A stretch of 64,000 nucleotides of DNA from Thermoplasmata archaeon (GCA_035502455.1 DATJUI010000019.1:13378-77377); one strand, 5' to 3'; shown: positions 15,908 through 55,091, counted from the first letter of the stretch. Translations and numbers: made by a program. Notes: generated by a model not told the origin, from the letters alone.

Positions 15908-18809
15908 GATAGAACGCGGGGCGGCCGGGCCGGGCCCGGTCGCGTCGTCCGGTCGGGTCGTCCTCGGCGGCGGCCTCCTCGGGAACGACCCGGACCACGC
16001 GGAAGCCGAACCGGCGCGCGAGGTACCCCTCGGCGGTCGCGAGGACCGCGGCCTCGTCCACGGCGGGGCCCACCTCCCGGCTCTCGCCGCGGAGCAGCTT
16101 CGCGACGCGCTCGACGTACCGCGGCAGTTGCGCCCGATGCGCGAGCACGTCGGGGTGCCCCTGGGCGCGCTCCATCAGGGCTCGGATCGTCGGCGTCTCC
16201 CCGCGGTCGAGCGCGTCGCGGATCCAGCGCTCCACCTCCGCCTTCCACGGGGGGGCGACGAAGAAGACGACCGCATCCGGCGCCGGCTCGGACTTCTCGC
16301 GCGTCGGCCGAAGGACGGCGCGCAGATCGTCCTCCACCCGGTCGAGGAACGCCTCGCGGGCCTCGGCGACCGGGGACCGCGCGAACTCGTCGGCCTCGGG
16401 CATCCGCGCCTCGGCGACGAGCCCCTCGAACCAGCCGCCGTTGAGCTCCTCCGCGACGTGCGGCGTGAACGGGGCGATGAGCCGGACCGCGACGCGGCCG
16501 AGGGTATCCGTCGCCGATCCTCCTGCCGCGCCCCCGCGGGCGAGGTACCGGCGCAGGAGCGCGGGCAGCTCGGCGAACGCGATCTCGGCGGCGTCCCGGA
16601 ACTCCCACGCCGCGAACGCCGCGTGGTACCGGGCGACGAGATCGTGCAGGCGGGAGGTGAGCCAGGCATCGAGCTCGGGCGGGCCGGCCCCGTCGCCCGG
16701 GCACCCCGCGATCAGCCGCTCCATCTCGCGGAGCCGCTCCGCGGCGGCCTCGACCGCCTCCTCGCTCCACTCGAGGTCCTGCGCCGGCGCCGCCGCCACG
16801 ACCTGGGCGAGCCGGAGCGGATCCGGACCCCACTGACCGAGCGCATCGTCGATCGCGGGGATCCGCTGGCGGCGCCCGGTCGAGTGCCCGCCCTTCGCCG
16901 CGACGTCCTTCTTCGAGAGCTTGCCGCCCTGCTCGTTCGTGATCCACCCGTGCTCGAACACGCCCCGGGGCTGGAGCTCGTCCGGCAGGAGCTTCGCGTG
17001 GGTGTAGAGGAAGACCGGGAAGTGGACCCGCTTGTGCTCCTTCGCGGCGATGTTGACGTCGAGCGGGTACCAATAGAGGAACTCCTCCCGGACCGTCGCC
17101 GCGAGCCCGGGATCGACGGTCGGCTCGCCCGGGCCCCGGCCGAGAAAGACGGCGTCGAAGAACGGGTCCGTGAGCTGCTCGGTCCTAAGCCGCCCGTCGG
17201 CGACGAACCGGCGCACGACGAAGTACGCCATGTAGAACGTCGAGTCGGCGATGGGCTCGACGATCCACGCCGGGTCGAGCGGAAACGGCGTCCCGAGCCA
17301 CGGTCCCTTGCGCGCGCAGGGGCGGTCACCGAACCAGTCGATGATCCCGGGGAGGTCCCGGGCGTAGTCGGCCGGCACGGTCGTCACGCGGGCGGTCACG
17401 GCCCGCGTGCGGGCCTTCCAGGCCGGATCGCTGTAGCGGAGGAACCACTGGTCCGGGATGCGCCGGATGACGACCTCGTGGCCGTTGCGGCAGACGACCG
17501 GCTTCGAGAACTCCCGAAGCTCGAAGCTCCCGCCCCGTTCGAGAAGGCGCGCGGCGACCGTCACGCGGGCCTCGCGGACCGGGACGCCGTCGAGGCCGGC
17601 GACGCGCATCACCCCGCGGCTGAACTCGAGCCGATAGAGCCGTTCGGTCGCCTCGTCGATCGGCGCGGGGCCCGACCCCCCGGCTGCGCCGACCGCGCGG
17701 AGCGCCCGCTCGGCGGGGGTGCCTTCGCCCGCCTCGAGGGCCGCCTCGGAGGCGGCGAGCCCGCCCGTGCGGTCGAGATCGAGCAGGACCGGCGGCGTTC
17801 CGATCCGCGCCCGATCGTCCGGCGGCAGCTCGGCGACGGCCGCCGCGTCCGCCGGCGCGTGGGCCGGCACCGACATCACCACCCCCGTGCCGACGCGGGG
17901 ATCGACCAGCGCGCTCGGCAGCACGGGAACGACGACGTCCCGGAACGGGACCCGGACGCCGCGGCCGAGGAGGCCCGCGACGGGCACGGGATGGCCGAGG
18001 CGACCGCCGTGCTGCTCCACGAGCCGCTCGCCGCCGGCCCGGGCCACGAGGAACTCGTCGCTGCCCCGGTGCCAGACCACGAGCTCGCCGGCGGGCGGCA
18101 GCCAGAGGTTGGTGACGCCGAAGACGGTCTCGGGGCGCAGGGTCGCGGCGAGGAGCGTACGGCCGTCGTCCAGGCGGAACGGCACCGTGGTGTACGCCAC
18201 CACCTCCGCGTCCCCGCCCTGCGAGAGGTCCGTCTCCGCGGCGTCGACCGCGACGGGGCCGCAGACCGGACAGACCGACGCGAAGTAGGCGCCCTGGACG
18301 ACCTCCCCCTCGCGGGCGAGGGTCGTGATCTGCCAGCGCACGAACGCACGATAGTCGTCGTCGATCGTCGTGACGTACGAGTCGGGATCGACGAGCACGC
18401 CGAGGCGGCGAAGGACGCGCAGGTACTCGCGGCCGAGGAAGCGGGCCGCGTACTCGGGTTGCTCGAGACGCTTTCGCTCGGCCGGGGAGACCCCGTGGTC
18501 GTCGAGCTGGGCGATCGTGCCGGGGTCGCCCGACTCGACCTTGCGGGCCCAGGCGACCGCCGGAAGACCCGAGGCGTGGACCCCGAACGGGAAGAAGACC
18601 TGCACCCCGCGCATGCGGTGGTAGCGGTGGAGCGGGTCCGCGTACGCGTACCCCCGCAGATGCCCCACGTGGAGGAAGCCGCTCGTCCCCGGGTACGCGA
18701 CCAGCGCATAGAACTTCCCGCGCCCCGGGACGCGCCGGGCGCGGGCGAGGCCGGCCCGGTCCCAGGCCTCCTGCCAAAAGGTCGCCCGGTCCGGCTCCAT
18801 CGGCGCCAT
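15873..18809 (-). CDS. leuS: leucyl-tRNA synthetase, archaeal type
   Basis: 978 aa; class I HIGH (SGFLHVGHLRGY) and KMSKS-like (KLSKK) motifs; archaeal/eukaryal LeuRS domain order. Confidence 0.95.
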   Translation of the reverse strand: MAPMEPDRATFWQEAWDRAGLARARRVPGRGKFYALVAYPGTSGFLHVGHLRGYAYADPLHRYHRMRGVQVFFPFGVHASGLPAVAWARKVESGDPGTIAQLDDHGVSPAERKRLEQPEYAARFLGREYLRVLRRLGVLVDPDSYVTTIDDDYRAFVRWQITTLAREGEVVQGAYFASVCPVCGPVAVDAAETDLSQGGDAEVVAYTTVPFRLDDGRTLLAATLRPETVFGVTNLWLPPAGELVVWHRGSDEFLVARAGGERLVEQHGGRLGHPVPVAGLLGRGVRVPFRDVVVPVLPSALVDPRVGTGVVMSVPAHAPADAAAVAELPPDDRARIGTPPVLLDLDRTGGLAASEAALEAGEGTPAERALRAVGAAGGSGPAPIDEATERLYRLEFSRGVMRVAGLDGVPVREARVTVAARLLERGGSFELREFSKPVVCRNGHEVVIRRIPDQWFLRYSDPAWKARTRAVTARVTTVPADYARDLPGIIDWFGDRPCARKGPWLGTPFPLDPAWIVEPIADSTFYMAYFVVRRFVADGRLRTEQLTDPFFDAVFLGRGPGEPTVDPGLAATVREEFLYWYPLDVNIAAKEHKRVHFPVFLYTHAKLLPDELQPRGVFEHGWITNEQGGKLSKKDVAAKGGHSTGRRQRIPAIDDALGQWGPDPLRLAQVVAAAPAQDLEWSEEAVEAAAERLREMERLIAGCPGDGAGPPELDAWLTSRLHDLVARYHAAFAAWEFRDAAEIAFAELPALLRRYLARGGAAGGSATDTLGRVAVRLIAPFTPHVAEELNGGWFEGLVAEARMPEADEFARSPVAEAREAFLDRVEDDLRAVLRPTREKSEPAPDAVVFFVAPPWKAEVERWIRDALDRGETPTIRALMERAQGHPDVLAHRAQLPRYVERVAKLLRGESREVGPAVDEAAVLATAEGYLARRFGFRVVRVVPEEAAAEDDPTGRRDRARPGRPAFYLTRPGEPRSDA

Positions 18810-18832
18810 CGAGCGGCCGGCGCTCTTAACCC

Positions 18833-19537
18833 GTGTGGGCGAGCCGCGGCCGGCCGCACCGGACGGGCCGGGCTCGAACTAAAGTCCTCGACCCATCTTT
18901 GCGCACCGTGCGGATCATCGAAGTGTTCCACTCCGTGCAGGGGGAGGGTCCGCTCTCGGGGGTCCGCACGACGTTCGTGCGCACGGCGCGGTGCAACCTG
19001 CGCTGCCGCTGGTGCGATACGACGTATTCGTTCGGGCCGGGTCGGGAGCGGTCGCTCGCGTCGATCGAGCGGACGATCGCCCGGAACCGGACGCGCCACG
19101 TCTGCCTCACGGGCGGCGAGCCGCTCCTCCAGCGCGAGTCGCTCGCGCTCGTGCGCCGTCTCGCCCGCAAGGGGCTCTCCACCGTGATCGAGACCGGCGG
19201 CTCGCTCGACGTACGGCCGTACCTCGACGTGCCGAACGTGATCCTGAGCGTGGACGTGAAGTGCCCCGCGTCCGGGATGGAACGACGGAACCGCTGGGCG
19301 AACCTCCCGTTGCTCCGGGCCCAGGACGTGCTCAAGTTCGTCATCCAGGACCGTCCCGACTACCTGTACGCGCGCCGGGTCGTGCGGGGGTATCGGGGAC
19401 CGGCGCAGATCGTCTTTCAGCCGGTCTGGGGGACCGACGCCGGCCGCCTCGCGGACTGGGTGCTCGCGGATCGCCTCGACGTCCGCGTGATGCTGCAGGA
19501 GCACAAGCTCCTCTGGGGCGACGTCCGCGGCCGGTAG
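18833..19537 (+). CDS. queE: 7-carboxy-7-deazaguanine synthase (radical SAM); true start may be GTG near 18908
   Basis: IEVFHSVQGEGPLSGVRTTFVRTARCNLRCRWCDT matches QueE N-terminal motifs; called start leaves only 24 nt to divergent leuS. Confidence 0.8.
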   Translation: MWASRGRPHRTGRARTKVLDPSLRTVRIIEVFHSVQGEGPLSGVRTTFVRTARCNLRCRWCDTTYSFGPGRERSLASIERTIARNRTRHVCLTGGEPLLQRESLALVRRLARKGLSTVIETGGSLDVRPYLDVPNVILSVDVKCPASGMERRNRWANLPLLRAQDVLKFVIQDRPDYLYARRVVRGYRGPAQIVFQPVWGTDAGRLADWVLADRLDVRVMLQEHKLLWGDVRGR

Positions 19538-44122: not shown

Positions 44123-45432
44123 GGCGCGGCCTCGGGCGCGTGCCGGTCGTGGAACTCGCCCGCCCGGTCGGTCCGTAGCAGCTCCTCGACCCGCTTCGGG
44201 TCCGCCGCGTGGCCGAGCGCCCAGCACAGCTTGGCGTAGGCCGTCTCGGGGAGGAGATCGCCGAGGTACAAGACCCCCGAGCGCAGCAGCTCGCGGCCGG
44301 TCGCGTAGACGTACGGGTCCGCGTTCCCGGCGAGGCACTGGGTCGTCATGGCGACGACCATCCCGCGGGCGGTCGCCGACCGGATCCAGGTGAGATGGTT
44401 CGAGCCGACGTGGCCGAGTCCCGTGCCCGCGAGCACGATCCCGCGCAGACCGCGCGAGAACGCTTCCGCGCGGTCCGCGGTGAGCCCGGGATAGAACCAG
44501 AGCAGGCCGGCGCGGGCATCGAGCGGTCCGTCCAGGCGCGCCGGGCCGGCGGCGGGCGGCCGCACCGGCTGCTCCCACCGGATCGAGCCGTCGACCACGT
44601 AGCCCAGCGGGGGCCCGTTGCGGCTCTGGAACGCATCGCGACGGCTCGAGTGCATCTTCCGCACCCAGGTCGCGCGGTGGATCGCGAGCCGGTCGTCGGA
44701 CGGCCCCGCGTGCATGACGACCACCACCTCGCCGCACCCGCGCTCGCGCGCGACCGCGACCGCCCCACCGAGGTTCGTGGCCCCGTCGGACGACGGCCGA
44801 TCGGGCGACCGCTGGGCCCCCGCCACCACGACCGGTCCGGGGAGGTCGACGAGCAGGAAGCTGAGGGCGGCGGCGGTGAAGCCGAGGGTGTCGGTGCCGT
44901 GCGCGATCACGACGCCGCGGGCCCCCGCCCCGAACGCCTCGACGACCTTCGAGGCGATCGCGACCCAATCCTCGGGGGCCAGGTCCTCGCTGAGCCGATC
45001 GAAGACGGGGACGATGCGGACCGGACCGTCGCGCTCGAGATCGGGGAAGAACGCGAGGATCCCCGACTCGTCCTTCACGGGTCGCACGCCACCGGTCTCG
45101 TAGTCGACCCGCGAGGCGATCGTGCCCCCGGTCGTCAGCAGCGCGACCGGCGCCCCCCCGACGGGGGATGACGGTCGGTCCGACGTCCCGGCGGACCGCC
45201 CCTCGTCGGCGGGACCGTCCTCCATCAGGCGGAAGCCGAACGAGGGTCCGATCCGGATCCCCACGTTGTAGCCGCTCTCCAGCTTGAGCGGCAGGATCCG
45301 ATCGCCCGACAGCTCGTGCCGGGGCACGATGGTCCCCGTCCACGTGCGGGCCCCGTCCGTGATCTCGACCCGACGGCCCATCGGCAGGGAGCGCAGGGCG
45401 TCCCACGGGTCCTTCGGTTCCGCTCCCGACAT
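44119..45432 (-). CDS. gatD: Glu-tRNA(Gln) amidotransferase subunit D (asparaginase-like)
   Basis: 437 aa; LLTTGGTIAS asparaginase threonine motif; 4-nt overlap with gatE. Confidence 0.9.
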   Translation of the reverse strand: MSGAEPKDPWDALRSLPMGRRVEITDGARTWTGTIVPRHELSGDRILPLKLESGYNVGIRIGPSFGFRLMEDGPADEGRSAGTSDRPSSPVGGAPVALLTTGGTIASRVDYETGGVRPVKDESGILAFFPDLERDGPVRIVPVFDRLSEDLAPEDWVAIASKVVEAFGAGARGVVIAHGTDTLGFTAAALSFLLVDLPGPVVVAGAQRSPDRPSSDGATNLGGAVAVARERGCGEVVVVMHAGPSDDRLAIHRATWVRKMHSSRRDAFQSRNGPPLGYVVDGSIRWEQPVRPPAAGPARLDGPLDARAGLLWFYPGLTADRAEAFSRGLRGIVLAGTGLGHVGSNHLTWIRSATARGMVVAMTTQCLAGNADPYVYATGRELLRSGVLYLGDLLPETAYAKLCWALGHAADPKRVEELLRTDRAGEFHDRHAPEAAP

Positions 45433-45555
45433 CGATCCGTTCCGGCGCGCCGTCGGACCCGGGAGCGGGTACGGCTAATAAGCGTCCACGACCGCTCGGT
45501 CCGGCCGGCCCCGGTCTTTTATACCGGACCCTCCTCGGCGCGCCGGGAACGCGCG

Positions 45556-45663
45556 AAGATCCGGATGCCCGTGTGGGGTAGCTTCGAGGTCGGGGTCGTC
45601 CCCCGCCTCGCTGCAGTGGATTATCCTAGAGGCCTGCGGAGCCTCAGACCTGGGTTCGAATCC
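45556..45663 (+). tRNA. tRNA-Arg (anticodon GCG) with putative about 33-nt intron in the D-loop
   Basis: 7-bp acceptor gcccgtg/cacgggc; T-arm ctggg-ttcgaat-cccag; anticodon arm gaggc-cTGCGga-gcctc (U33; anticodon 45625-45627); A14/G15; extra about 33 nt after position about 16, same place as in tRNA-Pro. Confidence 0.65.
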
Positions 45664-45795
45664 CAGCACGGGCGAGTTCCTCTCCCCAGCCGAGAGGCTT
45701 GGGGTCGGGGCGGTGCCTCGGCCCCGTTCGGAAGTGACCGAAGTTCCCCTAACGGTCCTACCCGAGCCTCACCATAGAACCGTCGGTCGAAGACC
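45645..45795 (+). repeat. repeat copy 1: tRNA-Arg 3' end plus about 130 nt of downstream flank (attL-like)
   Basis: Diverged homologue at 49404-49555; 15-nt exact core atcccagcacgggcg repeated at 47183-47197. Confidence 0.55.
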
Positions 45796-45801
45796 AAACT
45801 G

Positions 45802-46278
45802 CTACTTTCGGGCCCGGCCACCGGGACCGGGGCGCCTGTGCGTCCCTCGTCCACGAGGAGGTGGCCGTCTTGAGGATGTGGGCTCTCTTCCGAGACGTAT
45901 CCAGATTCCGTCGGGATCCTTGACCATCGCTGCCCATCCCCCAGTGGATTCCGGGGTGAACCGCGTGGCTCTACCTCCGTTTCGCAGGAGTTTCCGGTAC
46001 GCTCTATCGAGAGTGTAAGCCGGAGACGCACCGAGCGAGACGTCGATGTGATCCAGCTCGTCTCCCTTGCGGTACTTGGACGAGAACATGGAGCTTCGGG
46101 GATACCAGTTGAGTTCGAGGAGACGACGCGAGGTGGGATCCTGGAGGAGAGCGGTCACTCCGCCCCCCCAGCTACGACAATCATCCCTCCGGATCACGCG
46201 AAGTCCTAGTGCTCTCGTGTAGAACCTCACCGAACGCGGGAGATTCCCCACACGAATGCCGACACACTCGAGCCGCAT
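45802..46278 (-). CDS. VOC-family (glyoxalase/bleomycin-resistance fold) protein
   Basis: MRLECVGIRVGNLPRSVRFYTRALGL ... DPDGIWIRL beta-alpha-beta-beta-beta signature; C-terminal 30 aa probably read-through into the repeat. Confidence 0.6.
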   Translation of the reverse strand: MRLECVGIRVGNLPRSVRFYTRALGLRVIRRDDCRSWGGGVTALLQDPTSRRLLELNWYPRSSMFSSKYRKGDELDHIDVSLGASPAYTLDRAYRKLLRNGGRATRFTPESTGGWAAMVKDPDGIWIRLGREPTSSRRPPPRGRGTHRRPGPGGRARK

Positions 46279-46481
46279 CCTGAAGCATAGCGATCGAGGC
46301 TACTTAGGACCGAACCCAGTAGTTTCGACGCGCCCCCAGAGGTGCCGACCGAGACGCTAGATGGGTCCGCTGCGTACGGCCCCCAGCGAACTTTTCGCTG
46401 AGGGATTCGAACAAACGGCGATTCGACCACTAGCACGGGTGCTCTCCGAGCCGGCTCGATGAGCTATGTTCCCGACACGAC

Positions 46482-46508
46482 TATATTGATGTAGTGTATT
46501 GATGTGTA
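46482..46508 (+). promoter_or_regulatory. putative vapBC promoter/operator: two attgatgt direct repeats plus ctatatt TATA-like element
   Basis: attgatgt at 46485-46492 and 46498-46505, 5-15 nt upstream of vapB; RHH antitoxins typically autoregulate via repeats like this. Confidence 0.35.
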
Positions 46509-46511
46509 ACT

Positions 46512-46757
46512 GTGTCCGCAAAGACGGTGGCGTTGGACCCGGAGGCCTATGATATGCTGCGGCGCCAACGGCGAAGCGGCGAGACCTTTAGCGATGCGGT
46601 CAAGCGCCTTTCCGGCAAGCGCCGGTCGATCCTGGACTTTGCCGGGATATGGAAGGACATCCCCGACGAAGACCTCGAGAGGCTCCGCTCCTTCCTCGCA
46701 GAAGGACGGCGTCGGGACCGCGCGCGAATCGAGCGCCTGTTCCAGAAGGGGGGCTGA
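46512..46757 (+). CDS. vapB: type II antitoxin VapB (ribbon-helix-helix/COG4423-like)
   Basis: 81 aa; precedes the PIN gene with a 3-nt gap. Confidence 0.65.
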   Translation: MSAKTVALDPEAYDMLRRQRRSGETFSDAVKRLSGKRRSILDFAGIWKDIPDEDLERLRSFLAEGRRRDRARIERLFQKGG

Positions 46758-46760
46758 ACG

Positions 46761-47147
46761 GTGCGCTGCTTCGATTCAACTTTCCTTATCGATTACGTCC
46801 GGGGCGACGCGGACGCGGTCGGGAAAGTGAGAGAGCTCGTGGAGTTGGGTGAACGTCTCACGACCCCGTCCGCGGCTGCGGCCGAGGTCCTCGTCGGAGC
46901 TCACTTCCGGGGGCGGGGAGAACTCTCGCGAACTCTGGAATTCCTCGACCGCCTAGAGATCCTTCCCTTCGACATCGCCGAGGCAACCGAAGCCGGCAGG
47001 ATCGGTGCCGAGGCGCTTCGGCGGGGCGCCCCCATAGCGGGCAACGACCTGTTGGTCGCAGCGACCGCGCGACATCGCGGAGGGATACTCGTGAGCCGGG
47101 ACGGAGTCTTCTCGCAAGTGCCGGGCCTGGCGGTGGAAACGTACTGA
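46761..47147 (+). CDS. vapC: type II toxin VapC (PIN-domain ribonuclease)
   Basis: 128 aa; acidic PIN residues at conserved positions (CFDSTFLIDY ... AEV ... GNDLLVAATA ... SRDG). Confidence 0.8.
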   Translation: MRCFDSTFLIDYVRGDADAVGKVRELVELGERLTTPSAAAAEVLVGAHFRGRGELSRTLEFLDRLEILPFDIAEATEAGRIGAEALRRGAPIAGNDLLVAATARHRGGILVSRDGVFSQVPGLAVETY

Positions 47148-47182
47148 CGGATGGAGGGGATTCGTTACGGGGGCCGTAACGG

Positions 47183-47197
47183 ATCCCAGCACGGGCG
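47183..47197 (+). repeat. repeat copy 2: 15-nt exact match to the tRNA-Arg 3' end (atcccagcacgggcg) with about 45 nt of degenerate flank
   Basis: Identical to 45648-45662; follows vapC by 36 nt. Confidence 0.5.
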
Positions 47198-47486
47198 CCT
47201 TCCTCGGACCCGTGAGGAGCGGCGTGAGATTCGAGCACGATGAGACTCGGGCCCCCCCCGCGTCCAAGTGCGGGGTCTCGGCTGCTGGAGTCGAGGTGCC
47301 GTCGAGGTCGCCCGCTGACCCATGTGGGTGAGACGAACGTCTCGAAGTGCTCCCGATGAAGGTTCGCACCCGTGCAGCCTTGCCTCCTCCGCGGGACGTT
47401 ACCCCCGGTTTCAGATTCTGGGGAACCGCGGGTCAAGGAGGTCGAATGGCAGCCATTCAGCGAATCCGCTCGTCTTGCGGCGGGGG

Positions 47487-48320
47487 CTAGGTCTTCGGCT
47501 GGGCTCGCCCGACTGCGAAGGGACAAGCGAATCCCCAAATGATGATGACTACTAATGATCCCAGAATAAGAGGGAAGACGAATCTCGGTATCGAGTTCCC
47601 CGTAAAGATCCAAGCTGTCGCGGCTCCGCCGATAAAGCCTACGGTTCCTCCAATAAACCCTACGATCGCCATCCAATTTGGAAATACGCGGCTGTTCCAG
47701 AAGGCGACACTGAAGAGCGACACGCCCAAACCGAGGGCCGAGAAACCGAGGACCTCCCAACCATCCGTGATGTTGTACCAAAGCGCGGCCTCGTACGCAG
47801 CCGTCGCCGATGACGGAGCCGTGGTCGTCGATATGGCGTTGAGCGCGCTGTAGCTCGCGGCATTCGACACGGCCAACACGAATGCGCCGAAGAGGAACAC
47901 GAGCATGGAGGCCCATACCAGACCTCGACTTTGGGACTTGAGCGCCCCGCCGAGATACGTCGCGAAGGGCGTAACTCCCAAGGCGAAGACCAGGACCCAC
48001 AAATCGCTGAATGCGGTCGCGGCCTTGTTCGAATTGAACACGGCAAGCTGGTTCGACGGTGTCGAAGGTTCGGGTATGGTGACGAGTCCGGCGATGGTGA
48101 TTGCCGAGATCAGACCCGCCAAGATGGCGGCGATGAGAAAACCAGTCGGTCGGCCGGCGTCCGTGGGTATCGAGGTGTTTTCGGTTTCCGGAGGCTCGGG
48201 CAACATCGCGGCGACCGGGTTCTGAGGGATAAACGTTCCGAAGTCGCAAACCCTCTCTTTCGCCGAGCGGGGCGAGGAGTCGGGACCCGCCAGCGCCTGT
48301 CCGCCCAACGCCGGTCTCAA
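47487..48320 (-). CDS. hypothetical polytopic membrane protein (start possibly the internal Met at 48206)
   Basis: About 6 predicted TM helices; about 55-58 % GC, lower than the genome background. Confidence 0.55.
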   Translation of the reverse strand: MRPALGGQALAGPDSSPRSAKERVCDFGTFIPQNPVAAMLPEPPETENTSIPTDAGRPTGFLIAAILAGLISAITIAGLVTIPEPSTPSNQLAVFNSNKAATAFSDLWVLVFALGVTPFATYLGGALKSQSRGLVWASMLVFLFGAFVLAVSNAASYSALNAISTTTAPSSATAAYEAALWYNITDGWEVLGFSALGLGVSLFSVAFWNSRVFPNWMAIVGFIGGTVGFIGGAATAWIFTGNSIPRFVFPLILGSLVVIIIWGFACPFAVGRAQPKT

Positions 48321-48672
48321 GATCTCGGGCGGCCGGCCCGCTGCGCGGCGTCCGTGTCCGAGGCGCTTGTGCTCGGTCCTGAGCCCCTCGACTCGACCCG
48401 GGATTGAGGGAGGTGTCGATCACAAATCCACAAGTGAGGTCATGGACCGGTTCCACGACCTCACGGCGGGTACGTGCTCCCGCGTCCCGAGCGGGCGCGG
48501 TGGAGTCGAATACGTAGCTGCTCGAATCCCAGTAGGGGCGCCTACCCTATCTCTGCCCGCGAGCGTGGACACGAAGGTAGAGAGACCTACGACACCTCGC
48601 GCCCCCACGGACTCGCACGGGGAGTCGCGCGTCGCCGGGAGTTGGGATGTCGCACCCCGGCTCCAAGACCGG

Positions 48673-49290
48673 TCAGGCGGGCTTCTTGGCGATGACAAAA
48701 TCCATCGCATGGCGGTGGGGAACGCCACTCGAGTTGCAATCGAACTCTACCTCCCCCGAGTCCAGGATCTGCCAGTCCCCGTAGTACCCGAGCAGCTCGC
48801 CGGGGCGATAGGGGTGCTCCGCGGGATCCATTTCGGGCGGAGGATCGAGATAGGGCTTGGGAACAAAGGCGTTCACCGCATGAATGCCTCCCCGAACGGT
48901 GTGGGCTTGGAAGTGAGCAAAACGGGCCGGTCGGGCGCCCCGCGGGAGATTGTTGAGGACCCCGGAACTGAAGACCACATCGAATCGACGGCTCAGTTGG
49001 TACGATCGGATGTCGCCGATGCGAAAGCGCACCGCTAGACCGAGACGAGCGGCCCTTCGCTCCCCCTTGACCAGCCCGACGCGAGAGACGTCGACGCCAA
49101 GAACTCGAAACCCGTGACGGGCGAAGTGAATCGAATCTCGCCCCTCACCCGAGCCGAGATCGAGCAGCGTCGGCGACTTCGCCGGAAGGGTCCGGGCGAC
49201 TCGAACGACCTCGCGTGCCAGTCCGGTCGGCCTCGTCCCCCAGTACCAGCCCGGCCGTGAGTACCGCTGGTCGTAACTCGGTTCCCGCAT
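48673..49290 (-). CDS. class I SAM-dependent methyltransferase (TehB/thiopurine-MTase-like)
   Basis: LLDLGSGEGRDSIHFARHGFRVLGVDVS motif I plus post-I acidic residue; WYWG N-terminal motif. Confidence 0.75.
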   Translation of the reverse strand: MREPSYDQRYSRPGWYWGTRPTGLAREVVRVARTLPAKSPTLLDLGSGEGRDSIHFARHGFRVLGVDVSRVGLVKGERRAARLGLAVRFRIGDIRSYQLSRRFDVVFSSGVLNNLPRGARPARFAHFQAHTVRGGIHAVNAFVPKPYLDPPPEMDPAEHPYRPGELLGYYGDWQILDSGEVEFDCNSSGVPHRHAMDFVIAKKPA

Positions 49291-49403
49291 CGGTTACGTT
49301 CGCCCCCGACGGGCTATGTGTCGCGAGACTTGGGATTAGGCTATCTTGGGACTCACGACTCGTCGTCGCGGCCCGGGGGAGCGGCTCAGGACGGGGATTC
49401 TAG

Positions 49404-49555
49404 CCATCGGCGGCCGAATCGCAGCACGGGCGAGTTTCTCCCTCCACCCGAGAGGTTCGGGATCGGGTCGCTGCGCCTGTCCCGCTCGGAAGGGATCGAT
49501 GCCTCCCGCACAGTCCCACCCGGACCTCCGCATAGAGCCGTCGGGGAAAGCCCGA
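49404..49555 (+). repeat. repeat copy 3: tRNA-Arg T-loop/acceptor 3' fragment plus about 130 nt of flank, about 75 % identical to copy 1
   Basis: cgaatcGcagcacgggcgagtt (one mismatch to tRNA) then co-linear similarity to 45663-45795. Confidence 0.55.
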
Positions 49556-49664
49556 ACCGGCCTCCCCGGGCATGGGGAGTCGGATCGACGATCCGTGCCA
49601 CGCGGTGACGGCCGCCGTCCCTCGCCGCATTGGCCTCCACCCGGACGGGGGTCCGCACGCGCGT

Positions 49665-50723
49665 TCAATGCTTCGCGTAGTACTCCGCCACCGCGCGGAA
49701 CGACTCATTGGGCTCCCAGGGCATGTCGGGGTAGGTCGCCCCATGACCCCGTTCCAGGTAGCGAGCGAGGCTCGGGGAGGCCGTGTCCACGTCGAACCGT
49801 GGCTCCTCGTCGTAGGGCGTAATCTGCGATTGAAAGGTGCTAACGAAGCCGCCCAAGACGCCGGCTCGCTCGATCCGGTCCAATTGGGCGACCAGCTTCT
49901 GGGCCTGGGACTTTTCGTCTCGGACGAGGGGTGTCTTCAGCCGGGGGCGCACGAATCGGCCGATGAGGGGGAGTTGATGCAGGAGCTGAGAGCGGACATC
50001 GATCGGCGAGGGTTTGAGACCCGCGGAGTCCAGGAACCCATCGGCGCCCGGACCGTCGTCCGCCGTGGAGAATCCGAACTCCGTGATGACGACCGGCTTG
50101 CCCGTGGCGATGGCCGGACGGAGCATCTCGGTCCAGCGGTCCGCGATGCGGGCGGTAAGGTAGTGGTCCACCCCGACGAAGTCGAAAGCAGACCAGTCGA
50201 CTCCCTCCCAGACGAGCGACGCGTAGGTGAGTCGTCCGCGATACTCGCGTTGGACGGCCTTCACGAGTCGGGTGAGTAGCTCGTTCAGCGGGCGATTGTG
50301 CCGCCCACTCTTCACGGTGGGAAAGAACTGCGGGCTCCGGACCCGGGCTCTCATGGTCCGGCCGGGAATGACTCCCTCGTTGAACAGCGTGGCTTCCATC
50401 GCTACGCCGAGCACCACCCGGTCCGGAGCCTCCTTGCGAAGCGGCTCGAGCGCCCTGGCCGCCCGGATCAGGTAGCTCGCTGAGGTCTGGGGGCTACGGT
50501 CCCAGCACTGGGGAAAGATCCAGGTCTCGAGCCCTTCCGCGAGGGCCGCCCTGCCCGCGATCACCAGTCGTGCGGGATCCTTGCCGACGATTCGCACCGC
50601 GGTACAGTGCAGGTCGCGCCGGATGATCCCGAGCTCGTGGCGGACGTTCTCCGCCCGGAAATCCGGTCGCCAGTTCATCCCGTAGACGACGCCGGCGTCG
50701 TAGCAGACACCCTTCAGCTTCAC
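49665..50723 (-). CDS. TIM-barrel glycoside hydrolase-like protein (GH-A clan-like, ITEFG nucleophile motif)
   Basis: 352 aa; VVITEFGFS resembles the clan GH-A catalytic nucleophile strand; family not assignable by eye. Confidence 0.55.
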   Translation of the reverse strand: MKLKGVCYDAGVVYGMNWRPDFRAENVRHELGIIRRDLHCTAVRIVGKDPARLVIAGRAALAEGLETWIFPQCWDRSPQTSASYLIRAARALEPLRKEAPDRVVLGVAMEATLFNEGVIPGRTMRARVRSPQFFPTVKSGRHNRPLNELLTRLVKAVQREYRGRLTYASLVWEGVDWSAFDFVGVDHYLTARIADRWTEMLRPAIATGKPVVITEFGFSTADDGPGADGFLDSAGLKPSPIDVRSQLLHQLPLIGRFVRPRLKTPLVRDEKSQAQKLVAQLDRIERAGVLGGFVSTFQSQITPYDEEPRFDVDTASPSLARYLERGHGATYPDMPWEPNESFRAVAEYYAKH

Positions 50724-50918
50724 GCGCGCGGCGCTCCGTCGACCCGGCGCTCCCGTAAATCATCGTCGCGGAGTTGGACGCGGGCGCCGGTGGAGACGAT
50801 CGGACTCGAACTGAGTCGTCCGGCCGAAACGCGCCGATCGAGAGTCTCGGTCGGACCCCCGTACGGGTGCGTGGAAACTACGGAACCCGAGCTCGGCGGG
50901 ACGTTCGACCCACTGGGG

Positions 50919-51653
50919 CTACGTGGGGTCCTTGAGCCCGAGCAGCAACCCCCGGCCCGGAGTTAGGCCTCGCCGCAGGAAGCGGGCGGTCAGTCCGGCC
51001 TCCTCCATGAGTCGCACCAGCCGGCTTCGGGGTACGAGGAGGCCGATGTCCACCTCCTCGAGATGCTCCACGCGGCGCCCCGTTCTTCCGATGAGGTAGT
51101 GATAGTGGACCGCCGAGCGTCCCCCCCGCCGCGAAGAGAACGCCATGCGGGCGACCGTGACCGAGGGGCTCGTCCGAGTCAGCAGGTGAACGTACCCCGA
51201 GCGGAAGTCCGAGGGATCGATCCACGGCTCCACGATGACGACGCCGCCCGGCTGCAGGTGACGGGCGAAGTTCGAGAACGTCGCGGCGAGCTCCCGTTCG
51301 GTCTTGAGGTGACCGATCGCACTGTAGAGGCAGCTTACCACGTCAAAAGTCTCGTCGAGACGAAAGCTCCGCATGTCCCCGGGAATCAGCCGGACCCGGG
51401 GCAGACGACGCCGCGCCACCCGGAGCATCTCGCGACTCACGTCAACGCCCGTGACCGTGTAGTCACGCCGGAGGAAGCTCAGATGTCGTCCAGTACCGCA
51501 CGCCACATCCAGCCACGCCCGTCCTCGAGAACGGCCGAACTGGCGAGCGAGCGATTCGAGAACGCGGGCTTCCGAACGGTAGTCCTTCCCTCCCACCAGA
51601 TCGTCGTAGTAGAGCGCCAGTCGATGGAACATGAGGGGCTTGACTCGGGCCAT
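50919..51653 (-). CDS. TylM1/DesVI-family dTDP-aminosugar N,N-dimethyltransferase-like methyltransferase
   Basis: Co-linear similarity to TylM1 along the whole length: LALYYDDL, WLDVACGTGRHLSFL (vs LLDVACGTGMHLRHL), GDMRSFRLDETFDVVSCLYSAIGHL (vs GDMRDFSLGRRFSAVTCMFSSIGHL), GGVVIVEPWIDPSDFRSGYV (vs DGVVVVEPWWFPENFTPGYV), HYHYL (vs HYLV). Confidence 0.8.
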   Translation of the reverse strand: MARVKPLMFHRLALYYDDLVGGKDYRSEARVLESLARQFGRSRGRAWLDVACGTGRHLSFLRRDYTVTGVDVSREMLRVARRRLPRVRLIPGDMRSFRLDETFDVVSCLYSAIGHLKTERELAATFSNFARHLQPGGVVIVEPWIDPSDFRSGYVHLLTRTSPSVTVARMAFSSRRGGRSAVHYHYLIGRTGRRVEHLEEVDIGLLVPRSRLVRLMEEAGLTARFLRRGLTPGRGLLLGLKDPT

Positions 51654-52123
51654 ATCGAGCTCCCTCGACCGCTTCGGGCCCCTACGTGAACCCCTGGGTC
51701 ATGAATAAGAACGGGGTGCCACCGACGACCGGCTGGCTTCCCAACCTGGGAGTGCCGCCGTCCCGCCGGCTCTACCCGCATGCCGGATCGGATCCGGCCG
51801 AGATCGTGGGCCGGATGCCGGCTCTCGCCGTGCGCCCTCCTCTCGAGAGCGCGCTCGAGAGGCGGAGGGAGCTCGATCGTCGACCGGGGGGCGGGGACGC
51901 TCGACCTCGGACCCGCCGCACGCGTCTCTCATTCACCCATCGATCCCTCGTCAGGACCTCACGGGCGCCGGCCGCGATCGAACTCCGCTTCCGGAAGCTT
52001 CCCCCAATTTCTCGTCGATGCGGCGATGCTACGTTGCAAGTACGCGGTGGGCCACGGGGACGAGCCCTACGCGCCCGGTCCTGCCGAGGTCGAGGGGGTC
52101 CGGTCACGGGGGGGCGCTGCCCA

Positions 52124-52615
52124 TCAGGAGTTCAGGGCGGTGTCCCTGCGACGGGGGGTCGGAGCGTCGTCACCCCTTCCCGCTTGCGAAGTCCGTTCGT
52201 CCAAGCGCTTGAGGAGGTCCCGGAGCTGGAGGAGGTCTTGGGTCTCCCAGCCATCGAAAACCCCCTGGTGGTGGGCCAGCCGCTTGTGGACATGACTGTG
52301 GACGTGCAAGCCAACGCGAGTCGTCTGCACACGTACAAGACGGCGGTCCTCCCGGTCGCGGTGGCGACGTACGAGGTGGTCGCGCTCCATCTGGTCAATG
52401 ATCCCGGTCACGTGAGCCGGGCTGACGCCCAGAAACTGGGCGAGTTCACTCTGGGTGATCCCGCCGGGGGTCTGAGCGGCGTGGAGGGTCAGGTGGTGCA
52501 ACATCGGGAGCTGGGAGTGCAAGTGCGGACCGAACCGGGGGACCGCCCGGCGGAACACCCGACGGAGCAATCCCAGCGTCTCCTCGATCAGCTCGTCCCG
52601 ATCCGACTCGATCAT
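52124..52615 (-). CDS. MarR-family transcriptional regulator
   Basis: 163 aa winged HTH (ITQSELAQFLGVSPAHVTGIIDQMERDHLVRRHRDREDRRLVRVQTT). Confidence 0.8.
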   Translation of the reverse strand: MIESDRDELIEETLGLLRRVFRRAVPRFGPHLHSQLPMLHHLTLHAAQTPGGITQSELAQFLGVSPAHVTGIIDQMERDHLVRRHRDREDRRLVRVQTTRVGLHVHSHVHKRLAHHQGVFDGWETQDLLQLRDLLKRLDERTSQAGRGDDAPTPRRRDTALNS

Positions 52616-52660
52616 CCCGTCGTTCCCTCATCGCCCCGAAGGGCATAGAACCTTCGCCTC

Positions 52661-52705
52661 CAAATCATTCAATCAAAAATGTTTTAATACTGAATGAATA
52701 TAGAG
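52661..52705. promoter_or_regulatory. AT-rich divergent promoter/operator between marR and the ABC exporter; inverted repeat cattca...tgaatg and TATA-like aatatag
   Basis: Sequence tcattcaatcaaaaatgttttaatactgaatgaatatag; the ABC ATPase ATG is about 10 nt downstream. Confidence 0.4.
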
Positions 52706-52710
52706 GACGC

Positions 52711-53802
52711 ATGGCCGCAGCCGCCCGCCCTGCGAGCACCGTCCCCCGTGTCACCTACGGACCGTCCCGTTCCGACGCGATGATCGAGGTCCAGGATCTC
52801 GTCAAGGTCTACGGCGGCGGTCGCGGCCCGACCGCCGAGCCCGAGGTCCGAGCGGTCGACGGCATCAGCTTCTCGGTCTCCGAGGGAGAGTTCTTCGGGT
52901 TCCTCGGCCCGAACGGTTCGGGCAAGACCACGACGATGAAGATTCTCACGACCCTGCTCGGCCGGACGAGCGGACGGGTTCGGGTCGCGGGCTTCGACAT
53001 CGACCACGATGGGGCCCGGATGCGGAAGCAGATCGGCTACACCGGGCAGTCGATCGGGGTGGACGGGGATCTCACCGGCCGGGAGAACCTCATGCTGATG
53101 GGCCGACTGTACCACTTGCCCGGTCCTCTGGTCCGGGACCGAGTGGAAGACCTGCTCCGGCTCTTGCAGCTAACCGAAGCGGCCGATCGTCCCGCGTTCA
53201 CGTACTCGGGAGGGATGCGACGCCGGCTCGACCTCGGCTCGGCGCTCGTCCACCGGCCGAAGCTCCTGTTCCTTGATGAACCGACCACCGGATTGGACCC
53301 TCAGACCCGCAACGCCCTGTGGGAGTACCTCCGAGAGCTCCACGTCCGGGACGGGGTCACGATCTTCCTCACGACGCAGTACATGGAGGAGGCCGACCGG
53401 CTCTGCGAGCGCGTCGCGATCATCGACCACGGCCGTATCGTCGCGCAGGGAACGCCGGCGCAGCTCAAAGCCGAAATCGGGGCGGACAGCGTCACGATTC
53501 GCCTCCCGCTCGACGAGCGGCTCGAGGCGCGGAGACGGGAGGCGCTCGAGCTCGTCCGAACGGTCCCGGAAGTGGTCGGCGCTGCGCCCTTTGAGTTCGG
53601 GGTGACCGTCCAGGCCCGAAACGGAGGGGCGGCTCTCGTCGAGATCCTGCGGCGCCTCGAGTCGGGTCATGTCCCGGTGAAGGAAGTGGCGGTCTCGCCC
53701 CCGACCCTCGACCAGGTCTTCCTCCAGCACACGGGTCGCGAGATGCGCGCGGAGGAAGTGAGGCCGATGACCCGCATGGCCCGCCGCGGGATGGGACGGT
53801 AG
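52711..53802 (+). CDS. ABC transporter ATP-binding protein, DrrA-like (ABC-2 exporter ATPase)
   Basis: Walker A GPNGSGKTT, signature YSGGMRRRL, Walker B LLFLDEPTTGLD; DrrA-type C-terminal extension. Confidence 0.85.
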   Translation: MAAAARPASTVPRVTYGPSRSDAMIEVQDLVKVYGGGRGPTAEPEVRAVDGISFSVSEGEFFGFLGPNGSGKTTTMKILTTLLGRTSGRVRVAGFDIDHDGARMRKQIGYTGQSIGVDGDLTGRENLMLMGRLYHLPGPLVRDRVEDLLRLLQLTEAADRPAFTYSGGMRRRLDLGSALVHRPKLLFLDEPTTGLDPQTRNALWEYLRELHVRDGVTIFLTTQYMEEADRLCERVAIIDHGRIVAQGTPAQLKAEIGADSVTIRLPLDERLEARRREALELVRTVPEVVGAAPFEFGVTVQARNGGAALVEILRRLESGHVPVKEVAVSPPTLDQVFLQHTGREMRAEEVRPMTRMARRGMGR

Positions 53803-53803
53803 C

Positions 53804-54670
53804 ATGGCGACAGGGACCGGCCACCGCTACGAGCTCCCCGAGCTCTCGGTACCCTCGCCCGGATTCGGCTCCTTCTTCTCGGATATCGCGTGGGTCTGCT
53901 ACCGGAGTTTGAGGAAGCTCTCCCGCAACCCACTTCTCCTGATGTTCACGTTGATCATGCCGCTCATCTGGCTCGGGATGTTCAGCCAGACCTTCGGAAC
54001 GGTGTTCTCGAGGGCGGAGAGCGCCCCCGGTACCGCTCCCCTGCCGTACGACTACATCGCGGTTCTCTTGCCCGGGATTGCCATCATGACCGCGATCCAG
54101 GCGGCGTCACAGTCCGGGTTTGTGATGGTCTCGGACATCGAAACGGGCTTCATGGACAAGTTCTTCGTCGCTCCGATTCGCCGCAGTTCGGTCCTGGTCG
54201 GAAAGCTCCTCGGCGACGCCATCCGGATGGCGGGACAGGCGATCATCGTGCTCGGGATCGCCTACGTCTTCACGCTCGCCTTCGGCTGGAAGATCCCATT
54301 CGCGACGGGCATCCTGGGGGGCCTCCTGATCGTCCTGCTCGCCGCGCTCTTCGGGGTCGCGTTCTCGGGCCTGTCGAACTCGGTCGCGCTGTTCACGAAG
54401 AACACCGAGACGACGATGATGGTGGCGTTCACGCTCACCTTCCCGCTGCTCTTCCTCTCGACGGCGATGGTACCGCTCAGTCTCCTTCCGGGGTGGGTCC
54501 AGACGTTCTCGATGTTCAACCCGGTGAGCTACGTCGCCACCGCCTCGCGCGCGATGATCCTCACGGGCTTCAACTGGCCCGAGGTCGGCCAAGCGTTCGC
54601 AGCGATCGCGATTGTCGGAGTGCTGCTCAACGCGCTCGCGGTGTACGCGTTCCGGCGACAGGGCCGCTAG
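53804..54670 (+). CDS. ABC-2 family transporter permease (DrrB-like)
   Basis: 288 aa, 6 TM helices; starts 2 nt after the ATPase stop. Confidence 0.8.
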   Translation: MATGTGHRYELPELSVPSPGFGSFFSDIAWVCYRSLRKLSRNPLLLMFTLIMPLIWLGMFSQTFGTVFSRAESAPGTAPLPYDYIAVLLPGIAIMTAIQAASQSGFVMVSDIETGFMDKFFVAPIRRSSVLVGKLLGDAIRMAGQAIIVLGIAYVFTLAFGWKIPFATGILGGLLIVLLAALFGVAFSGLSNSVALFTKNTETTMMVAFTLTFPLLFLSTAMVPLSLLPGWVQTFSMFNPVSYVATASRAMILTGFNWPEVGQAFAAIAIVGVLLNALAVYAFRRQGR

Positions 54671-54677
54671 GGTGGAG

Positions 54678-55091
54678 ATGTCGACCGATCCGGAGCTCAC
54701 GCCCGGGGGAGGTCCCATCCAGCGCGGGACCGAGGCACCGTCCGACGAGCTCCCGGTGGGCTCGCGGAACGCGCCGAAGGCGCGCCGAGCCGCTCGCGAC
54801 CCGAAGCGACCGGGCGAACGATGCCGTGCGGCCCCGGGTCACTGGATCCCGGTCGTTGATCGGGCCCAGTGCGAGGGCAAAGCCGAATGCGTCGACGTTT
54901 GTCCGTACGCGGTCTTCCAGATCGGAACCCTCACGGACGAAGAGTATCGATCGCTGAGCTACCTGGGACGGGCCCGGGCGCGCCACCACCAGTTCCAGAC
55001 CTCTCGCACGCCCCGTGCCGCGGAGTGTCGGGCATGCGGGCTCTGCGTGGTCGCGTGCCCCGAGGATGCGCTGAAGCTGATCCGAAGCTGA
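54678..55091 (+). CDS. 4Fe-4S ferredoxin-domain protein with disordered N-terminus
   Basis: Two cluster-binding cysteine motifs, CEGKAECVDVCP and CRACGLCVVACP. Confidence 0.6.
   Translation: MSTDPELTPGGGPIQRGTEAPSDELPVGSRNAPKARRAARDPKRPGERCRAAPGHWIPVVDRAQCEGKAECVDVCPYAVFQIGTLTDEEYRSLSYLGRARARHHQFQTSRTPRAAECRACGLCVVACPEDALKLIRS

Follow-up and report, generated by a model that had tools for sequence, protein, structure and literature searches.

A tRNA-Arg(GCG) gene anchors recurrent arrays of small modules without recombinase genes in soil Thermoplasmata

Accretion of foreign DNA at tRNA genes is examined here in a window of 64,000 nt from a Thermoplasmata archaeon (GCA_035502455.1 DATJUI010000019.1:13378-77377; positions are counted from its first letter). 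The region that runs from its tRNA-Arg(GCG) gene to ∼52 kb is probably a tandem array of small modules, built by repeated site-specific recombination and mobilisable by a recombinase encoded elsewhere. The array is anchored at the tRNA through site-specific recombination, recurs in the clade, varies between strains, consists of foreign DNA and is devoid of recombinase genes. Four tRNA-derived sites separate the single-gene or single-operon modules C1–C5. We infer that the modules can still be mobilised by a recombinase or helper element supplied in trans, because their right arms are conserved over unrelated cargo, because exact core sequences flank intact modules made of cargo only and because one cassette crosses species. 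Most described integrated elements of archaea are viruses or plasmids that bring their own integrase, and to our knowledge the exchange of accessory genes in uncultured archaea is poorly known.

The anchor (attB/attL) is a tRNA-Arg(GCG) gene on the + strand, 135 nt downstream of gatD and conserved beside it in at least 14 related contigs. With introns allowed, ARAGORN calls a tRNA-Arg(gcg) with a D-loop intron at 45566–45675; the gene is placed at 45567–45674 because the conservation among relatives stops at G45674. The intron (∼34–43 nt) is non-canonical, lies in the D-loop region and keeps its position across the clade with a variable sequence. It hides the anchor from default ARAGORN, which finds 0 tRNA genes in the whole window, and from Rfam at its gathering threshold, with 0 matches in the whole window; with the Rfam tRNA model the gene scores 26.8 bits, narrowly below the gathering score of 29. 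In two relatives, ARAGORN miscalls the intron-bearing tRNA-Arg(GCG) as tRNA-Ser or tRNA-Pro. The segment from the T-loop nucleotide C56 to the discriminator G73 (45657–45674, +) is the 18-nt core CGAATCCCAGCACGGGCG, and its first nucleotide is where identity starts in every downstream copy.

Copies of this 3′ end recur downstream on the + strand. The 15-mer ATCCCAGCACGGGCG is found at 45660 (the tRNA itself), at 47183 without mismatch, at 49418 with one mismatch and at 48526 with two. An earlier note, made from the sequence alone, had reported an exact recurrence at 47183–47197, a one-mismatch copy near 49404–49424, a possible fourth copy and a co-linear repeat of ∼130 nt, all of which stand; the repeat aligns 45657–45799 with 49415–49557 (143 nt, 76% identity), and the possible fourth copy is real, since 46403–46441 fits a composite site and is conserved in the sister species. 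This composite site consists of an inverted GGATTCG, a spacer of 11–17 nt and the core CGAATCCCAGCACGGGCG. Four such sites are present, all on the tRNA strand and within 3 kb (46.4–49.4 kb), against a mean of 0.54 and a maximum of 2 in simulations; their direct core copies start at 46424, 47180, 48523 and 49415. All belong to the type A described below. Site S1 (46403–46441, +), obtained in the composite-pattern scan, is degenerate, with five mismatches in its core, and is conserved at 18403 on the reverse complement of contig L171 (L171rc). Site S2 (47158–47197, +) has one mismatch in 18 and a strong hairpin (GGGGATTCGTTACGG GGG CCGTAACGGATCCC; fold z-score −2.5). Site S3 (48502–48540, +), with two core mismatches, is an addition to the copies listed in the earlier note, and site S4 (49395–49432, +) has one core mismatch; both come out of the 15-mer and the composite scans. 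Single 18-mers with five mismatches are common in the window, as chance similarity in a G+C-rich genome would have it. Chance is nevertheless scarcely credible as the source of the pattern: the 15-mer occurs four times where 0.29 are expected and 0/100 shuffles reached four, the 143-nt repeat is 76% identical and the arrangement recurs in relatives.

The relatives locate the boundary of the array. GatD places the window among uncultured Thermoplasmata of soil and peat, the closest of which have a GatD 77–78% identical. The window derives from contig k141_3332862 of the ENA assembly ERZ27256462, and ERZ27256528 contains the complete island once more in almost identical form. The gene order of 34.0–45.7 kb is kept in 14 related contigs and stops exactly at the tRNA 3′ end; beyond it the cargo differs, and the relatives share with the window only TehB (L002) and, in the species called B here, the ∼125-nt arm and vapBC. 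Additional same-strand cores follow the same tRNA in six further lineages, which brings the total to ∼25 sites in seven lineages: five in species B (L171), three in L176/L144, four in L186, four in L195 and one each in L146 and L006. None is found within 5–10 kb of the tRNA in L001/L182, L002 and L003. In all ∼25 copies, across the seven lineages, identity to the tRNA begins at C56, and the two preceding nucleotides always differ. An identity block that begins in the T loop and extends through the 3′ terminus classically marks insertion by an integrase that must rebuild the tRNA; it is reportedly the sublocation II of Williams (2002), and this T-loop sublocation is typical of tyrosine integrases. 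Repeated site-specific integration into one tRNA, as put forward in the earlier note, is thus borne out by the C56 boundary, the break of synteny at the tRNA end, the arrays in seven lineages and a strain-variable module described below.

Two observations concern the DNA next to the tRNA in the relatives. Paralogues of ∼350 aa, similar to tandem Lrp/AsnC regulators (L176 3751–4797 and 7190–8248; L186 6719–7783; L195 6726–7748), together with a NosD/β-helix protein, adjoin the tRNA in three lineages and may be a native flank of a sub-clade or an old shared module. Many contigs of array-bearing species (L173, L175, L179–L181, L192 and L193) end at tRNA-Arg or within ∼300 nt of it, which is what assembly graphs do when strains diverge immediately after the core.

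Upstream of the cores, the sites have right arms of ∼20–35 nt that are conserved across cassettes with unrelated cargo and across species. They fall into two types, both of which may occur in one array. Type A (13 sites) has an inverted GGATTCG and a variable palindromic spacer; type B (seven sites) reads ACGAATCGGnCnGAAAyGGAACCATAAGrGTA, in the pattern ACGAATCGGNCNGAAAYGGAACCATAAGRGTA-core. The motif yTTTCCyCGG follows almost every core, including that of the tRNAs in array-bearing genomes, and is presumably a trailer or terminator supplied to the tRNA by incoming DNA. In the 14-bp dyad of type A, 71.6% of the cells are paired. Shuffles average 64.5 ± 2.0% (1/500 attained the value of the real sites) and slid controls do not exceed 52.8%. 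Exchanges of CG to GC occur in the inner stem, and L171_19158 has T to C with A to G. The support for a conserved dyad is moderate, since the set includes orthologous pairs of sites and no more than 2/10 fold better than their shuffles. A hairpin common to all sites was considered and discarded on the same count of 2/10 and on the lack of a dyad in type-B sites.

These palindromic ends raise the question of an integron-like system, in which a dedicated recombinase at another locus would read the folded type-A sites like attC, with the tRNA in the role of attI. In favour of this idea, the GGATTCG/CGAATCC dyad has an inner part that is variable yet palindromic, with changes on both sides of pairs; the cassettes are small and rich in toxin-antitoxin pairs, with the newest module beside the anchor, and arrays without integrase are known as clusters of attC sites lacking integron-integrases (CALINs; PMC9668308). 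Against it, IntI and the R″/R′ boxes of attC are lacking, genes occur in both orientations, some multi-gene modules reach 6 kb, type-B sites have no such dyad, a strong hairpin forms in only 2/10 sites folded, a stem of ∼14 bp is short for two recombinase monomers and the covariation statistics include orthologous site pairs. By inspection (a covariance model was not used), the architecture GGATTCG...CGAATCCCAGCACGGGCG has no RYYYAAC/GTTRRRY boxes, and the sites, which lie <4 kb apart as in CALINs, are not attC. In the window, the VOC, DUF4386, TehB and AcvX-like genes are encoded on the − strand and vapBC on the + strand. The array is not an integron, because it has no IntI, no attC boxes and a mixed gene orientation, and a dedicated integron-like machinery is improbable. 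The resemblance to an integron-like array that the earlier note had drawn therefore holds for the small cassettes with a conserved end site, the many toxin-antitoxin pairs, the new insertions beside the anchor and the missing integrase; it fails for IntI, the R″/R′ boxes and co-orientation.

Differences between strains of species B bring the comparison down to single modules. This species, which is present in both ERZ27256462 and ERZ27256528, is represented by six contigs from five samples with an identical GatD protein. In L171, the tRNA is followed by module M0 (4,034 nt), an exact core, module M1 (1,448 nt), a second exact core and the ∼125-nt arm; in L172, L173 and L174, the order is tRNA, M1, exact core and arm, without M0, and L175 stops on the final nucleotide of the core. 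Outside M0 the two versions are 98.4–98.9% identical, and the strains differ by exactly one module (M0) plus one core. The genes of both modules are intact: M0 carries a RelE-like toxin-antitoxin pair, a PKD/Kelch surface protein and a protein with transmembrane and winged helix-turn-helix (TM-wHTH) parts, and M1 a RelE-like toxin-antitoxin pair and a CYTH protein. The tRNA-proximal cores of L171 are exact and the distal ones have four, four and two mismatches, which is what the entry of new modules beside the tRNA would produce. The last 40 nt of S3 in the window match the right end of M0 at 85% identity.

A cassette shared between species adds to this picture. Positions 46319–47210, which comprise vapBC, its upstream region and S2, are 89.9% identical to L171rc 18298–19188; the window and the species-B backbone are 79.3% identical over 11.6 kb. 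Homology of the cassette stops at the end of the S2 core, and its neighbours are VOC and DUF4386 genes in the window and SIP-like and DinB-like genes in species B. When only third codon positions are compared, identity amounts to 0.86 in vapB and 0.81 in vapC, versus 0.61–0.76 in gatD, gatE and the genes of L11, Spt5 and FtsZ. Upstream of vapB, species B has two degenerate cores 42 nt apart (L171rc 18403–18462; window 46424–46480), the second of which is further decayed in the window; they may be scars of excised or deleted cassettes.

The search for a recombinase covered the array, the window and the relatives. In 45300–52750, none was found among the 25 families listed from a six-frame Pfam search of 95 frames of ≥50 aa (11 others all had E > 0.012), a sensitivity at which the statement of the earlier note that no recombinase ORF (open reading frame) is present holds. 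A regular expression for the RHRY-type C-terminal motif had no match in the window, and in the annotated parts of the 64 kb (27–31 kb and 57–59 kb are unannotated) no tyrosine recombinase was found, the only related entry being an IS110 transposase at the edge. Among the relatives, no recombinase appeared among the matches listed for L144, L146 and L149 (six-frame Pfam, frames of ≥120 aa), in the main ORFs of L006 or in the precomputed Pfam labels of genes called at ≤10 kb from the tRNA in L171–L197. No helper element or decayed backbone of an integrative and conjugative element (ICE) is visible in any of the seven lineages. In IMG/VR, the site 15-mer gave chance matches only, the gapped arm pattern 0 matches and the 18-mer one chance match, inside a bacterial phage integrase ORF. 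The island of L006 holds an insertion sequence (IS; DDE_Tnp_1).

Several proteins were considered as hidden recombinases and proved to be otherwise. The 352-aa ORF at 49665–50723 is a homologue of AcvX (PDB 7y4h). The L144/L176 arrays encode ∼350-aa proteins that resemble tandem Lrp/AsnC regulators, and each 77/107-aa pair of M0 and M1 combines an antitoxin with a RelE-like toxin. The 205-aa ORF in M1 is a CYTH protein, and the remaining candidate, in M0, is the TM-wHTH protein. A split integrase of the SSV type, with int(N) and int(C) over the att sites, was rejected as well: the arms have neither codon periodicity nor amino-acid conservation, and there is no Phage_integrase Pfam match.

These negative results bear on the commonest known history of tRNA islands, in which elements integrate in tandem and leave degenerate remnants and partial tRNAs dispersed over the island (10.1101/2020.12.28.424599, PMC5704250). 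Applied here, complete viruses or plasmids with their own tyrosine integrase would have accreted and then decayed by later deletions, strain differences arising by recombination between repeats. Several window cores are indeed degenerate, with 2–5 mismatches, a decayed fragment of a relBE cassette lies at 51849–52043 and the L006 island has its IS (DDE_Tnp_1). However, such a history predicts integrase fragments and there are zero across ∼25 sites in seven lineages; modules with exact 18/18 cores are wholly filled by intact cargo genes; the right arms of ∼20–35 nt stay conserved, which neutral relics would not; and the modules are mostly 0.8–4 kb long, with one gene or operon. Ordinary accretion followed by decay is thus possible but on the unlikely side. 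The earlier note had assumed a decay of recombinase genes, and this part of it is not upheld, given that no integrase fragment was found here or in related arrays and that M0 and M1 are filled by intact non-recombinase genes.

The preferred account, modules mobilised by a recombinase encoded elsewhere, can be formulated as follows. The target would be the 3′ part of the tRNA gene, beginning in the T loop, and the right end of each module is a site of ∼40–60 bp, made of the conserved right arm, the 18-nt tRNA mimic and the pyrimidine-rich yTTTCCyCGG of the neighbouring left end. Each insertion would rebuild a complete tRNA and shift the previous 3′ copy downstream, so that the copies come to partition the array, a step that the anatomy and the comparative data bear out. 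The modules carry cargo only (toxin-antitoxin pairs, small enzymes, a membrane protein and methyltransferases) and no recombinase. They would move as cassettes mobilisable in cis or in trans, through a recombinase that may be chromosomal or lie on a helper element using the same tRNA site; judging from the T-loop sublocation of the identity block, it would be a tyrosine integrase. Any two direct cores could recombine and turn the intervening stretch into a transferable circle, to be re-inserted in another genome, and native flanks (arm with gene, spacer with TehB) may become new cassettes in that way. It is tempting to go further and to propose for soil Thermoplasmata a tRNA-anchored cassette system analogous to but independent of integrons, with a remote recombinase that would insert single-gene cassettes, dyad sites that would mimic the T arm and acceptor end of tRNA-Arg(GCG) and flanks turned into interspecies cassettes; taken as a whole, this broader scheme is doubtful.

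A number of points weigh against mobilisable cassettes. No recombinase was identified and no circular or empty-site junction was observed, and for this reason mobilisation in trans is what we infer rather than observe. A very weak or fragmented integrase in related arrays could have been missed with frames of ≥120 aa and the top 25 families, and the relatives are metagenome contigs covering at most 10 kb beyond the tRNA. Homologous recombination between the 18-bp cores could have deleted M0 and so given rise to its polymorphism, and the adjacent left ends of M0 and M1, 75% identical over ∼650 nt, would favour such a deletion. For vapBC, the identity of 90% falls in the highest 5% of backbone windows of the same length (892 nt), whose maximum is 91% in L11/Spt5, so that the argument for horizontal transfer depends on the synonymous sites of only 189 codons; on its left side (46320) the cassette is not bounded by a clear core. 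Finally, core decay in the window array does not rise steadily with distance from the tRNA.

The third repeated feature, besides core and right arm, is the non-coding arm of ∼125 nt that follows certain cores. Copy 1 (45675–45805, +) lies after the window tRNA, before the VOC gene, at the left end of C1; copy 2 (49433–49559, +), defined by the repeat alignment and an nhmmer profile, lies after S4, before the AcvX-like gene, at the left end of C5, and is 76% identical to copy 1. The species-B copy (L171rc 17018–17170) lies after the third core, before a SIP-like gene. Copy 1 is 85% identical to it and copy 2 78%, a value close to the backbone identity of 79%. The nhmmer profile found no further copies in the DNA fetched. 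Codon periodicity is absent (11/14/10 differences by phase), and the pair has ∼53% amino-acid versus 76% nucleotide identity. The arm is not a conserved native flank of the tRNA in the clade, being absent after the tRNA in 10 other relatives. The identities of 78% and 85% would fit a native tRNA flank in the common ancestor of the window species and species B, with C1 (arm and VOC) imported from a closer relative of species B.

A rival reading takes the repeats for functional signals in RNA or DNA, duplicated between genes, rather than for scars of recombination; a tRNA-like element for processing or termination, or a family of structured non-coding RNAs, would be examples. For one site, seen both as L171_17023 and as L149, the fold is a minihelix resembling an acceptor/T arm (z = −5), and pyrimidine-rich tracts follow every core. 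Most sites, however, have no minihelix, and the arms fold with z-scores in the range −1.4 to −0.1 (−1.4, −0.1 and −0.9), with two pairs changing on both sides in three sequences and no Rfam match, so that the arm as a structured RNA is rejected. Rfam matches nothing in the window or L171 at its gathering threshold, and at the E-value threshold only the tRNA itself, against the non-coding RNA family that the earlier note had named as the alternative to att-site duplications. The sites are further restricted to the region downstream of tRNA-Arg(GCG) and to its strand, the genes between them face both ways and they coincide with boundaries of strain insertions or deletions. A signal function in place of recombination is very improbable.

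The modules of the window are small and mostly of one gene. C1 encodes a VOC (vicinal oxygen chelate)/glyoxalase-family protein of 158 aa (45802–46278, −; Pfam Glyoxalase 3.2e-10; G+C content at third codon positions, GC3, of 0.64). C2 encodes vapB (46512–46757) and the PIN-domain toxin gene vapC (46761–47147), together 46512–47147 on the + strand (Pfam VAPB_antitox 1.8e-10 and PIN 2.4e-16). C3 has a DUF4386 membrane protein (47487–48308, −; Pfam DUF4386 4e-11; GC3 0.72) and C4 a TehB-like S-adenosylmethionine (SAM) methyltransferase of 205 aa (48673–49290, −; Pfam/NCBIfam TehB). In C5, the 352-aa homologue of PDB 7y4h ‘AcvX’ (49665–50723, −; phmmer against PDB 3.8e-57, full-length; GC3 0.83), for which Pfam, NCBIfam and PHROG give no match, is accompanied by a class-I SAM methyltransferase (50919–51653, −; Pfam Methyltransf_25 2.4e-20; GC3 0.79). 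The partition given in the earlier note has to be revised in that the site at 48523 splits its module of membrane protein plus TehB and that MarR belongs to a separate MarR–drrAB block.

Composition sets the modules apart from their surroundings. GC3 is 0.64–0.79 in C1–C4 and 0.79–0.83 in C5, against 0.90 ± 0.06 in backbone genes. The lower G+C content reported in the earlier note (about 55–60% against about 70% in the flanks) is confirmed in direction and corrected in value: the regional G+C content is 0.58–0.69, versus 0.72–0.79 upstream, and recovers only at ∼55.75 kb. Public gene calls for the source contig (L167/L169/L170) omit the VOC gene and cut the TehB-like gene to its last 67 codons, probably owing to their atypical codon usage (GC3 0.64 and 0.72); both ORFs are nonetheless intact, with full-length family matches. 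A TehB homologue, 65% identical, directly follows the tRNA in L002, with a spacer of 136 nt compared with 133 nt after S3 in the window, and may likewise be a former native flank that became a cassette. DUF4386 homologues, 66–74% identical, are found in unrelated contexts without cores and are uninformative on cassette mobility. One of them, 66% identical (L166 4668–5627), lies directly upstream of tRNA-Arg(CCG) on another Thermoplasmata contig without cores, which may be a coincidence.

On its right side the island is larger than stated in the earlier note (45556–52710), with two more components. The first is a remnant of a relBE-type cassette (51849–52043), comprising the promoter and the first 77 nt of the antitoxin gene and no longer coding; it is recognised by its similarity to M0 (73% identity over 195 nt to L171rc 12118–12312, E = 1.3e-27) and has no protein-level match in the window. 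The second is the MarR–drrA–drrB block (52059–54804; Pfam MarR, ABC_tran and DrrA1-3_C), with the MarR gene at 52124–52615 (−) and drrA and drrB from 52711 (+), which is not bounded by tRNA-derived cores. As a terminal core of the array, only weak candidates with indels are present near 51940–51967, 52052–52062 and 52097–52115, none of them statistically defensible. The MarR–drrAB block is 90.9% identical over 2746 nt to contig L194 (62% G+C), with different flanks on both sides and no cores, and the best DrrA homologue is 93% identical as compared with 78% for the closest GatD. This points to a horizontally transferred unit of regulator and ATP-binding cassette (ABC) exporter that adjoins the array. 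Between its divergent genes, the AT-rich palindrome cattcaatcaaaaatgttttaatactgaatgaat (∼52655–52690) looks like a putative MarR operator. An IS110-family transposase (DEDD_Tnp_IS110 + Transposase_20) lies at the window edge (2–1168, −), and a second one (L194 5389–6429, −) at 1 kb from the counterpart of the MarR–drrAB block.

Collectively, recurrent and strain-variable arrays in at least seven lineages of soil and peat Thermoplasmata point to a platform for cassette exchange. Such islands escape standard detection pipelines because the intron-bearing anchor tRNA is invisible to default tRNA finders. With the site sequences, the anchor and the polymorphic strains in named metagenomes now defined, the question is directly testable. 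A limited literature search, which is no proof of absence, found no earlier description of such arrays in Thermoplasmata.

Among known systems, tRNA-targeted integrative elements, of which tandem integration is documented in archaea (PMC8371274), share with the locus an intact tRNA with direct 3′ repeats, an atypical composition and absence from relatives; an integrase gene or pseudogene inside was not found. The closest parallel is with cis-mobilisable elements (CIMEs), whose accretion at tRNA genes is described for ICEs and integrative and mobilisable elements of Streptococcus (PMC5704250; Pavlovic 2004 and Bellanger 2011 as cited there). Like CIMEs, modules C2–C4, M0 and M1 have both att sites (attL/attR) and no genes for integration or transfer, and stand in tandem at a tRNA 3′ end; CIMEs are thought to move through a helper integrase that recombines distal att sites, as is likewise proposed here. 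Unlike CIMEs, the arrays have an archaeal host, smaller modules (0.8–4 kb) and far more of them per array, no visible helper or decayed ICE backbone and two coexisting types of right arm. CALINs, reported also from archaeal metagenome-assembled genomes and made of cassettes that IntI can mobilise in trans (PMC9668308), resemble the arrays in their small cassettes that end in dyad sites, many toxin-antitoxin pairs, the absence of a nearby integrase and a presumed mobilisation in trans. They differ in that the sites here derive from a tRNA, the anchor is a functional tRNA instead of an attI by intI, the genes are not uniformly oriented and a few-gene module may take the place of a single gene.

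Two further systems are comparable in their use of tRNA genes. Tycheposon islands of Prochlorococcus are tRNA-anchored and hypervariable, with older elements pushed inward by successive integrations, partial tRNAs scattered through the islands (10.1101/2020.12.28.424599) and niche-relevant cargo, as in the present arrays, but tycheposons encode a tyrosine or serine recombinase of their own as well as a replication module, and their remnants contain fragmented integrases, none of which was found here. The ‘suicidal’ capture of SSV-type elements in hyperthermophilic archaea (PMC7253208, PMC8371274) is also targeted to tRNAs and leaves trapped elements with tRNA-derived repeats; in that system int(N)/int(C) fragments overlap the att sites, whereas no coding fragments of this kind coincide with the cores or arms of the window. 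The locus fits best among the tRNA-anchored accretion islands, as a variant with integrase-less cassettes and conserved tRNA-mimicking sites in soil Thermoplasmata.

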